This document shows, piece by piece, positions 17,216 through 18,862 of a DNA stretch of 64,000 nucleotides (position 1 is the first letter of the stretch; every line of letters starts with the position of its first letter). Below the pieces are notes generated by a model that was given only the letters and a program-made list of their open reading frames with translations, did not search any database and was not told the DNA's origin. Origin of the DNA: Escherichia coli (GTDB taxonomy: Bacteria; Pseudomonadota; Gammaproteobacteria; Enterobacterales; Enterobacteriaceae). The position numbers and the translations under genes are program-made. The stretch is taken from NCBI RefSeq assembly GCF_003019035.1, contig NZ_CP027447.1. One strand, 5' to 3'.

Positions 17216-18862
17216 ATGAATGGCGCACAGTGGGTGGTACATGCGTTGCGGGCACAGGGTGTGAATACCGTTTTCGGTTATCCGGGTGGCGCAATTATGC
17301 CGGTTTACGATGCATTGTATGACGGCGGCATGGAGCACTTGCTGTGCCGACATGAACAGGGTGCGGCAATGGCGGCTATCGGTTATGCCCGTGCTACTGG
17401 CAAAACTGGCGTATGTATCGCCACGTCTGGTCCGGGCGCAACCAACCTGATAACCGGGCTTGCGGACGCGCTGTTAGATTCCATCCCTGTTGTTGCAATC
17501 ACCGGTCAGGTGTCCGCACCGTTTATCGGCACTGACGCATTTCAGGAGGTTGATGTCCTGGGATTGTCGTTAGCCTGTACCAAACACAGCTTCCTGGTGC
17601 AGTCGCTGGAAGAGTTGCCGCGCATCATGGCTGAAGCATTCGAAGTTGCCAGCTCAGGTCGTCCTGGTCCGGTTCTGGTCGATATCCCAAAAGATATCCA
17701 GTTAGCCAGCGGCGATCTGGAACCGTGGTTCACCACCGTTGAAAACGAAGTGACTTTCCCCCATGCCGAAGTCGAGCAAGCGCGCCAGATGCTGGCAAAA
17801 GCGCAAAAACCGATGCTGTACGTTGGCGGTGGCGTGGGCATGGCGCAGGCAGTTTCGGCTTTGCGTGAATTTCTCGCTACCACAAAAATGCCTGCCACCT
17901 GCACGCTGAAAGGGCTGGGCGCAGTTGAAGCGGATTATCCGTACTATCTGGGCATGCTGGGAATGCACGGCACCAAAGCGGCGAACTTCGCGGTTCAGGA
18001 GTGCGATCTACTGATAGCCGTGGGCGCACGTTTTGATGACCGGGTGACCGGCAAACTGAACACCTTCGCACCACACGCCAGCGTTATCCATATGGATATC
18101 GATCCGGCAGAAATGAACAAGCTGCGTCAGGCACATGCGGCATTACAGGGTGATTTAAATGCTCTGTTACCAGCATTACAGCAGCCGTTAAATATCGATG
18201 ACTGGCAGCAACACTGCGCACAACTGCGTGATGAACATGCCTGGCGTTACGACCATCCTGGTGACGCTATCTACGCGCCGTTGTTGTTAAAACAACTGTC
18301 GGATCGTAAACCGGCGGATTGCGTCGTGACCACAGATGTGGGGCAGCACCAGATGTGGGCTGCCCAGCACATCGTCCACACTCGCCCGGAAAACTTCATC
18401 ACCTCCAGCGGCTTAGGCACCATGGGTTTCGGTTTACCGGCGGCGGTTGGCGCACAAGTCGCGCGACCGAACGATACTGTCGTCTGTATCTCCGGTGACG
18501 GCTCTTTCATGATGAATGTGCAAGAGCTGGGCACCGTAAAACGCAAGCAGTTACCGTTGAAAATCGTCTTACTCGATAACCAACGGTTAGGGATGGTTCG
18601 ACAATGGCAGCAACTGTTTTTCCAGGAACGATACAGCGAAACAACCCTTACCGATAACCCCGATTTCCTCATGTTAGCCAGCGCCTTCGGCATCCCTGGC
18701 CAACACATCACCCATAAAGACCAGGTTGAAGCGGCACTCGACACCATGCTGAACAGTGATGGGCCATACCTGCTTCATGTCTCAATCGACGAACTTGAGA
18801 ACGTCTGGCCGCTGGTGCCGCCTGGTGCCAGTAATTCTGAAATGTTGGAGAAATTATCATGA
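17216..18862 (+). CDS. ilvG: acetolactate synthase II large subunit, intact
   Basis: uninterrupted 548 aa ORF; the K-12 reference allele is frameshifted. Confidence 0.95.

Follow-up and report, generated by a model that had tools for sequence, protein, structure and literature searches.

An intact ilvG gene within a complete ilvLXGMEDA operon of a non-K-12 Escherichia coli

The valine sensitivity of Escherichia coli K-12 has been attributed to a frameshift in ilvG, which is also polar on the downstream genes (PMC3446290, PMC3032704, PMC8605374). In its account of this lesion, PMC8605374 refers to Lawther et al. (1981) on how it arises at the molecular level and to Parekh and Hatfield (1997) on its polar effect. 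An earlier note on the DNA examined here, a stretch of 64,000 nucleotides from E. coli (referred to below as the window), reported a continuous 548 aa ilvG followed by ilvM and took this as a sign of a strain other than K-12. The locus raises the question of whether its ilvG is truly intact and likely to provide a working acetohydroxy-acid synthase II (AHAS II), and of how much an open ilvG frame says about the background of the strain.

The ORF listing of the window has a single plus-strand ORF for ilvG, starting with ATG and running for 548 amino acids without an internal stop, a length far above chance expectation (Table 1). The NCBIfam equivalog model NF006524 ("acetolactate synthase 2 catalytic subunit") matched positions 1–547 of the 548 in its product with 1072.5 bits, the cut-off being 738, and the score with TIGR00118 was above cut-off as well (718 against 538). 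All three domains of the ThDP-enzyme architecture, TPP_enzyme_N, TPP_enzyme_M and TPP_enzyme_C, were above cut-off in Pfam, with both the catalytic glutamate (E47) and a GDG...N(N/Q) motif for binding of ThDP and Mg present. Residues E47, F109, M250, R276, V375 and W464, characterised in the mutagenesis literature on E. coli AHAS II, are all at their expected positions. The coordinates, length and gene names given in the earlier note for ilvG and the ilvM that follows it were correct according to the ORF list, Pfam and NCBIfam.

Table 1. Features of the ilv operon in the window, with the evidence for each
Feature	Position	Strand	Evidence
ilv operon 5' leader region, Rfam RF02744 (Rev39_5p_UTR)	16907..17196	+	157.1 bits against gathering cut-off of 88, E = 7.7e-49, full model 1-300
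ilvL leader peptide, 32 aa, MTALLRVISLVVISVVVIIIPPCGAALGRGKA	16978..17076	+	NF007744, 81.9 bits against 59
Attenuator: G+C-rich hairpin (17101-17124), then U8 run (17125-17132)	17101..17132	+	Folding
ilvX small ORF, 16 aa	17163..17213	+	Coordinates transferred from SCU-301 and K-12 annotation
ilvG, AHAS II catalytic subunit, intact, 548 aa	17216..18862	+	ORF, Pfam, NCBIfam, K-12 alignment
Mosaic (recombination) patch in ilvG, 23 substitutions in 217 nt against the ST648-type allele	17470..17686	+	Alignment, genome search
AT without counterpart in K-12 ilvG, codons N326-I327	18192..18193	+	Global alignment
ThDP/Mg2+-binding motif GDG-X26-NQ, residues 427-456	18494..18583	+	Protein sequence
ilvM, AHAS II small subunit, 87 aa, ACT domain	18859..19122	+	NF008362, 133.9 bits against 68
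ilvE	19142-20071	+	Coordinates transferred from SCU-301 annotation, identical in this stretch
ilvD	20136-21986	+	Coordinates transferred from SCU-301 annotation, identical in this stretch
ilvA	21989-23533	+	Coordinates transferred from SCU-301 annotation, identical in this stretch

The gene context is that expected of AHAS II. Directly 3' of ilvG lies ilvM, with its ATG overlapping the TGA of ilvG as ATGA and its protein showing no differences from K-12 IlvM. This is followed by ilvE, ilvD and ilvA, then ilvY on the opposite strand and then ilvC, and the ilvLXGMEDA operon is complete with the ilvL attenuator in front of it. Leucine, valine and isoleucine account for 15 of the 32 residues of the leader peptide. 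Folding of positions 17085–17140 gave −23.3 kcal/mol (z = −4.2), with none of 200 shuffled sequences being as stable; the attenuator was not picked up on the plus strand by a simple terminator scan, its stem being interrupted, and was recovered by folding. Positions 16931–17215, comprising the leader, attenuator and ilvX, are base-for-base the same as in K-12. The promoter-proximal stretch 16701–16926 has 11 positions unlike K-12, and is unlike the ST648 sequence at position 16701 only.

To establish the relationship to the K-12 gene, the 1647 nt of the window ilvG were globally aligned with MG1655 ilvG (b4488, NC_000913.3), which is annotated as a pseudogene of 1645 nt. The two differ by 59 substitutions (3.6% of positions) and one 2-nt gap. 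At this gap the window reads TTA AAT ATC GAT GAC (L325 N326 I327 D328), whereas K-12 reads TTA AAT CAA TGA (L N Q stop), its frame ending at codon 328, which agrees with the premature UGA published at nt 982–984 (PMC8605374). The lesion of K-12 is given in a genome paper as "two separate base pair insertions" (PMC3032704), which is not what the alignment shows: K-12 has one deletion of 2 nt. The statement of the earlier note that the K-12 reference carries a frameshifted ilvG is borne out by this comparison, and the pairwise alignment that it proposed as a check leaves its reading of the ORF standing, with the K-12 deletion and its stop at codon 328 absent from the window.

The distribution of the two forms was examined in 5426 complete E. 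coli genomes using a probe of 60 nt centred on the K-12 ilvG junction. The exact K-12 junction was found in 340 of these genomes, and each of the 60 carriers listed has either the name of a K-12 laboratory strain or a genome of K-12-like size, among them MG1655, C600, J53, DH5alpha, DH1, RR1, HMS174 and the ER and NEB strains. At least 4468 genomes have the junction with the two additional nucleotides. This number represents lower-identity matches to the probe, every listed one of which spans 61–62 nt rather than the proportional 59–60 and therefore carries the two extra bases. The remaining 618 genomes gave no probe match, with SNPs breaking the 28-nt seed, and the lineage of the window itself is probably among them. 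Intact ilvG is the norm of the species, and the K-12 lineage is the exception with a broken copy. This has been known since 1981 (Lawther et al., as cited in PMC8605374) and has been repeated in comparative-genome papers (PMC3032704, PMC3446290), in which ilvG is also reported as intact in strains B, W and Crooks, explaining their valine tolerance, and expression of ilvGMEDA as higher in B than in K-12.

The earlier note was right to conclude that the strain is not K-12, but its reasoning from the intact allele is weaker than it was made out to be, since an open frame is the species norm and is also found in K-12 revertants. The 59 substitutions in ilvG, the identity of about 97.5% over the window and an insert of 5.3 kb are decisive here and outweigh the open frame as evidence. 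Identity to K-12 is 98.0% over positions 1–23532, 95.1% over ilvY–ilvC and 97.5% over positions 31794–63998, and positions 26046–31440 gave no alignment at all in the comparison of the window with K-12. Neither near-identity to MG1655 nor its gene content was found, with the 5.3-kb insert present in the window and the yifN remnant of K-12 absent from it.

The insert lies between ilvC and ppiC, as the earlier note had indicated in mentioning an extra cluster at this place. It is absent from both K-12 and ST648 and has five genes, encoding a GntR/FCD regulator, a PfkB sugar kinase, an RraA-like aldolase, a D-2-hydroxyacid dehydrogenase and an MFS transporter, and looks like a sugar-acid catabolic cluster. 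Only 31 of the 5426 complete genomes carry it, every one at an identity of 99% or more. Its flanks (21000–26045 and 31441–33000), comprising the 3' part of ilvD, ilvA, ilvY, ilvC, ppiC and the 5' part of rep, are 93.6–95.4% identical to K-12, compared to approximately 97–99% just beyond; ppiC, like ilvY–ilvC, is approximately 95% identical. These flanks mark a local block of deeper ancestry or of recombination around a variable site. Stretches at 54–60 kb diverge from K-12 to a similar degree. It should also be noted that between about 20.5 and 25 kb ST648 and the window are almost the same (0–4 differences per 500 nt), yet ST648 lacks the island. Two smaller differences from K-12 were observed nearby: ilvA and ilvY overlap by 4 nt in the window (23530–23533) where K-12 has approximately 59 extra nt between them, and at 31740–31793 the window lacks the approximately 830 nt (yifN pseudogene) that lie between ppiC and rep in K-12.

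A search for relatives of the allele placed the window next to two genomes. Over its 1647 nt, ilvG is 100% identical to that of SCU-301 and GF131, two complete genomes that were assembled independently and differ in country and source, in which PGAP calls the gene an intact CDS (WP_089583331.1). These are the only two of the 5426 genomes with a whole-gene identity of 99% or more, the next genomes being at 98.5%. SCU-301, a human commensal, is nearly the same as the window: over the approximately 58 kb outside the rRNA operon the two differ by 4 SNPs, two 1-nt deletions in G runs and an 18-nt change in repeat number in hemX. The next-best genomes carry the ST648-type allele (WP_022646321.1), and 23 of its 24 differences from the window fall within the patch given in Table 1, which changes amino acids at residues 114 and 143 only; positions 18001–19000 are identical between the window and ST648. 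Strain LR-28 has a stretch of 241 nt containing the patch at 100% identity, and several other E. coli have it at 98.8%. The differences cluster in one patch, and this sequence is known from other E. coli; the window ilvG is therefore a within-species mosaic from a short recombination event, in a rarely sampled clone. Import of ilvG from an outside species was rejected on the same clustering within a 217-nt patch found in other E. coli. It is highly unlikely that the patch of approximately 220 bp, with V114 and E143, alters the kinetics or regulation of AHAS II, or that the divergence of ilvD–ilvC reflects co-transfer with the sugar-acid island.

A few other differences were observed in the window. 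The minus-strand gene yifB (15105–16625) has a run of five G at 15457–15461 against six in K-12, SCU-301 and GF131, and the resulting frameshift ends its product after approximately 392 of 506 aa. The exact 60-mer for this variant occurs in 39 genomes, mostly of ST648 type, and in the ST648 record the gene is labelled "frameshifted"; the variant is likely to be a real lineage-associated or recurrent slippage allele. A similar change from six G in K-12 and SCU-301 to five, at 48983–48987, splits the ECA fucosaminyltransferase gene wecF/rffT (48658–49736) into ORFs of 119 and 240 aa. This variant was found in none of the 5426 genomes, which leaves a private mutation or a homopolymer sequencing error as its origin. 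In hemX (59056–59095) the copy number of an in-frame GGTGCA hexamer varies, with 24 nt more than K-12 and 18 nt fewer than SCU-301. In the rrn operon, and only there, the SCU-301 record (11400–16150, window 8600–13360) departs from the window by dozens of 1-nt indels, which are most likely assembly errors of that record and not biology.

With the sequence of the gene and its relatives in place, two explanations that would make the open frame misleading can be weighed. A K-12 derivative with its ilvG frame restored, that is, an ilvG+ or valine-resistant revertant, would also have an open frame, and such revertants arise readily through 1-nt deletions near the premature stop (PMC8605374). The window, however, has the ancestral AT with no compensating indel, its ilvG carries the 59 substitutions and most of the aligned window differs from K-12 by approximately 2–2.5%. 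It has the 5.3-kb island, lacks the yifN remnant and is near-identical to a human commensal, leaving this origin a negligible chance; it is refuted by the ilvG alignment, the window-wide divergence and the island. An assembly or sequencing artefact hiding a real frameshift could be suspected from the two 1-nt deletions in G homopolymers in other genes of the window, that in wecF being unique among the 5426 genomes. The source assembly, with these two single-base deletions in yifB and wecF, does not guarantee base-level accuracy. Errors of this kind can disrupt an ORF but not give rise to one, and random errors would not produce a 548-aa ORF which conforms to its family. The artefact is extremely unlikely and was rejected, the same 1647 nt being found without a difference in the two independent assemblies of SCU-301 and GF131.

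It could also be proposed that, despite an intact ORF, substitutions or promoter differences of this lineage impair the enzyme or lower its expression, leaving the strain valine-sensitive. The 11 amino acid differences from the K-12-derived sequence and the 11 substitutions upstream of the leader in 16701–16926 speak for this. Of the former, nine are also found in the ST648-type allele, which many clinical strains have. The leader and attenuator are the same as those of K-12, and the catalytic and specificity residues are conserved along with the cofactor motif. The dN/dS ratio is 0.069 against the frame-restored K-12 gene (11 aa from 59 nt differences) and 0.027 against the ST648 allele (2 aa from 24 nt differences); values of 0.03–0.07 indicate that ilvG remains under purifying selection. 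An impaired enzyme is very unlikely, although the amino acid differences (11 with respect to K-12 once its frame is restored, 2 with respect to ST648) may have some effect on activity.

The locus is best explained as the ordinary wild-type ilvG–ilvM pair of a natural non-K-12 E. coli within a complete ilvLXGMEDA operon, to which we give a probability of roughly 0.93. IlvG (548 aa; cofactors ThDP, FAD and Mg2+) would associate with the small subunit IlvM to form AHAS II, which is expected to condense pyruvate with a second pyruvate or with 2-ketobutyrate in the first common step towards valine, leucine and isoleucine. This isozyme, unlike isozymes I and III, would be free of feedback inhibition by valine, and attenuation at the ilvL leader controls the operon. 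With the ilvG frame open, valine resistance is predicted, as is the absence of the polar reduction in ilvEDA expression of K-12. The expectation of resistance is supported by data from K-12 itself, in which a 1-nt deletion restoring the frame allowed growth at 1 mg/ml valine (PMC8605374). We infer the activity of the enzyme, its insensitivity to valine and the growth phenotype from the dN/dS values, the conserved residues, the identical IlvM and the identical leader and control region.

As intact ilvG is to be expected in any wild strain, the finding is of little importance in itself. It may be used as a quick marker that the window is not from a K-12 laboratory strain, and for predicting valine tolerance and ilvEDA expression without the polarity seen in K-12.

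In comparison to known systems, the closest is the IlvG of SCU-301 and GF131, with no ilvG differences from the window and with the operon and flanking island also shared. The ST648-type IlvG, at 98.5% DNA identity, shares length and context and differs by 24 nt and 2 amino acids, the window having V114 and E143. K-12 MG1655 shares the locus and operon, with leader, attenuator, ilvX and IlvM identical and ilvG 96.3% identical, but is without the 2 nt of 18192–18193 and shows 11 amino acid differences after restoration of the frame. Among PDB sequence matches E. coli IlvG had no identical or near-identical counterpart; by sequence, the nearest solved structure is that of IlvB, the large subunit of E. 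coli AHAS I (PDB 6LPI, residues 2–544, E = 1e-161), which belongs to the same ThDP/FAD-dependent fold family but represents a different isozyme, one that is valine-sensitive when paired with IlvN.
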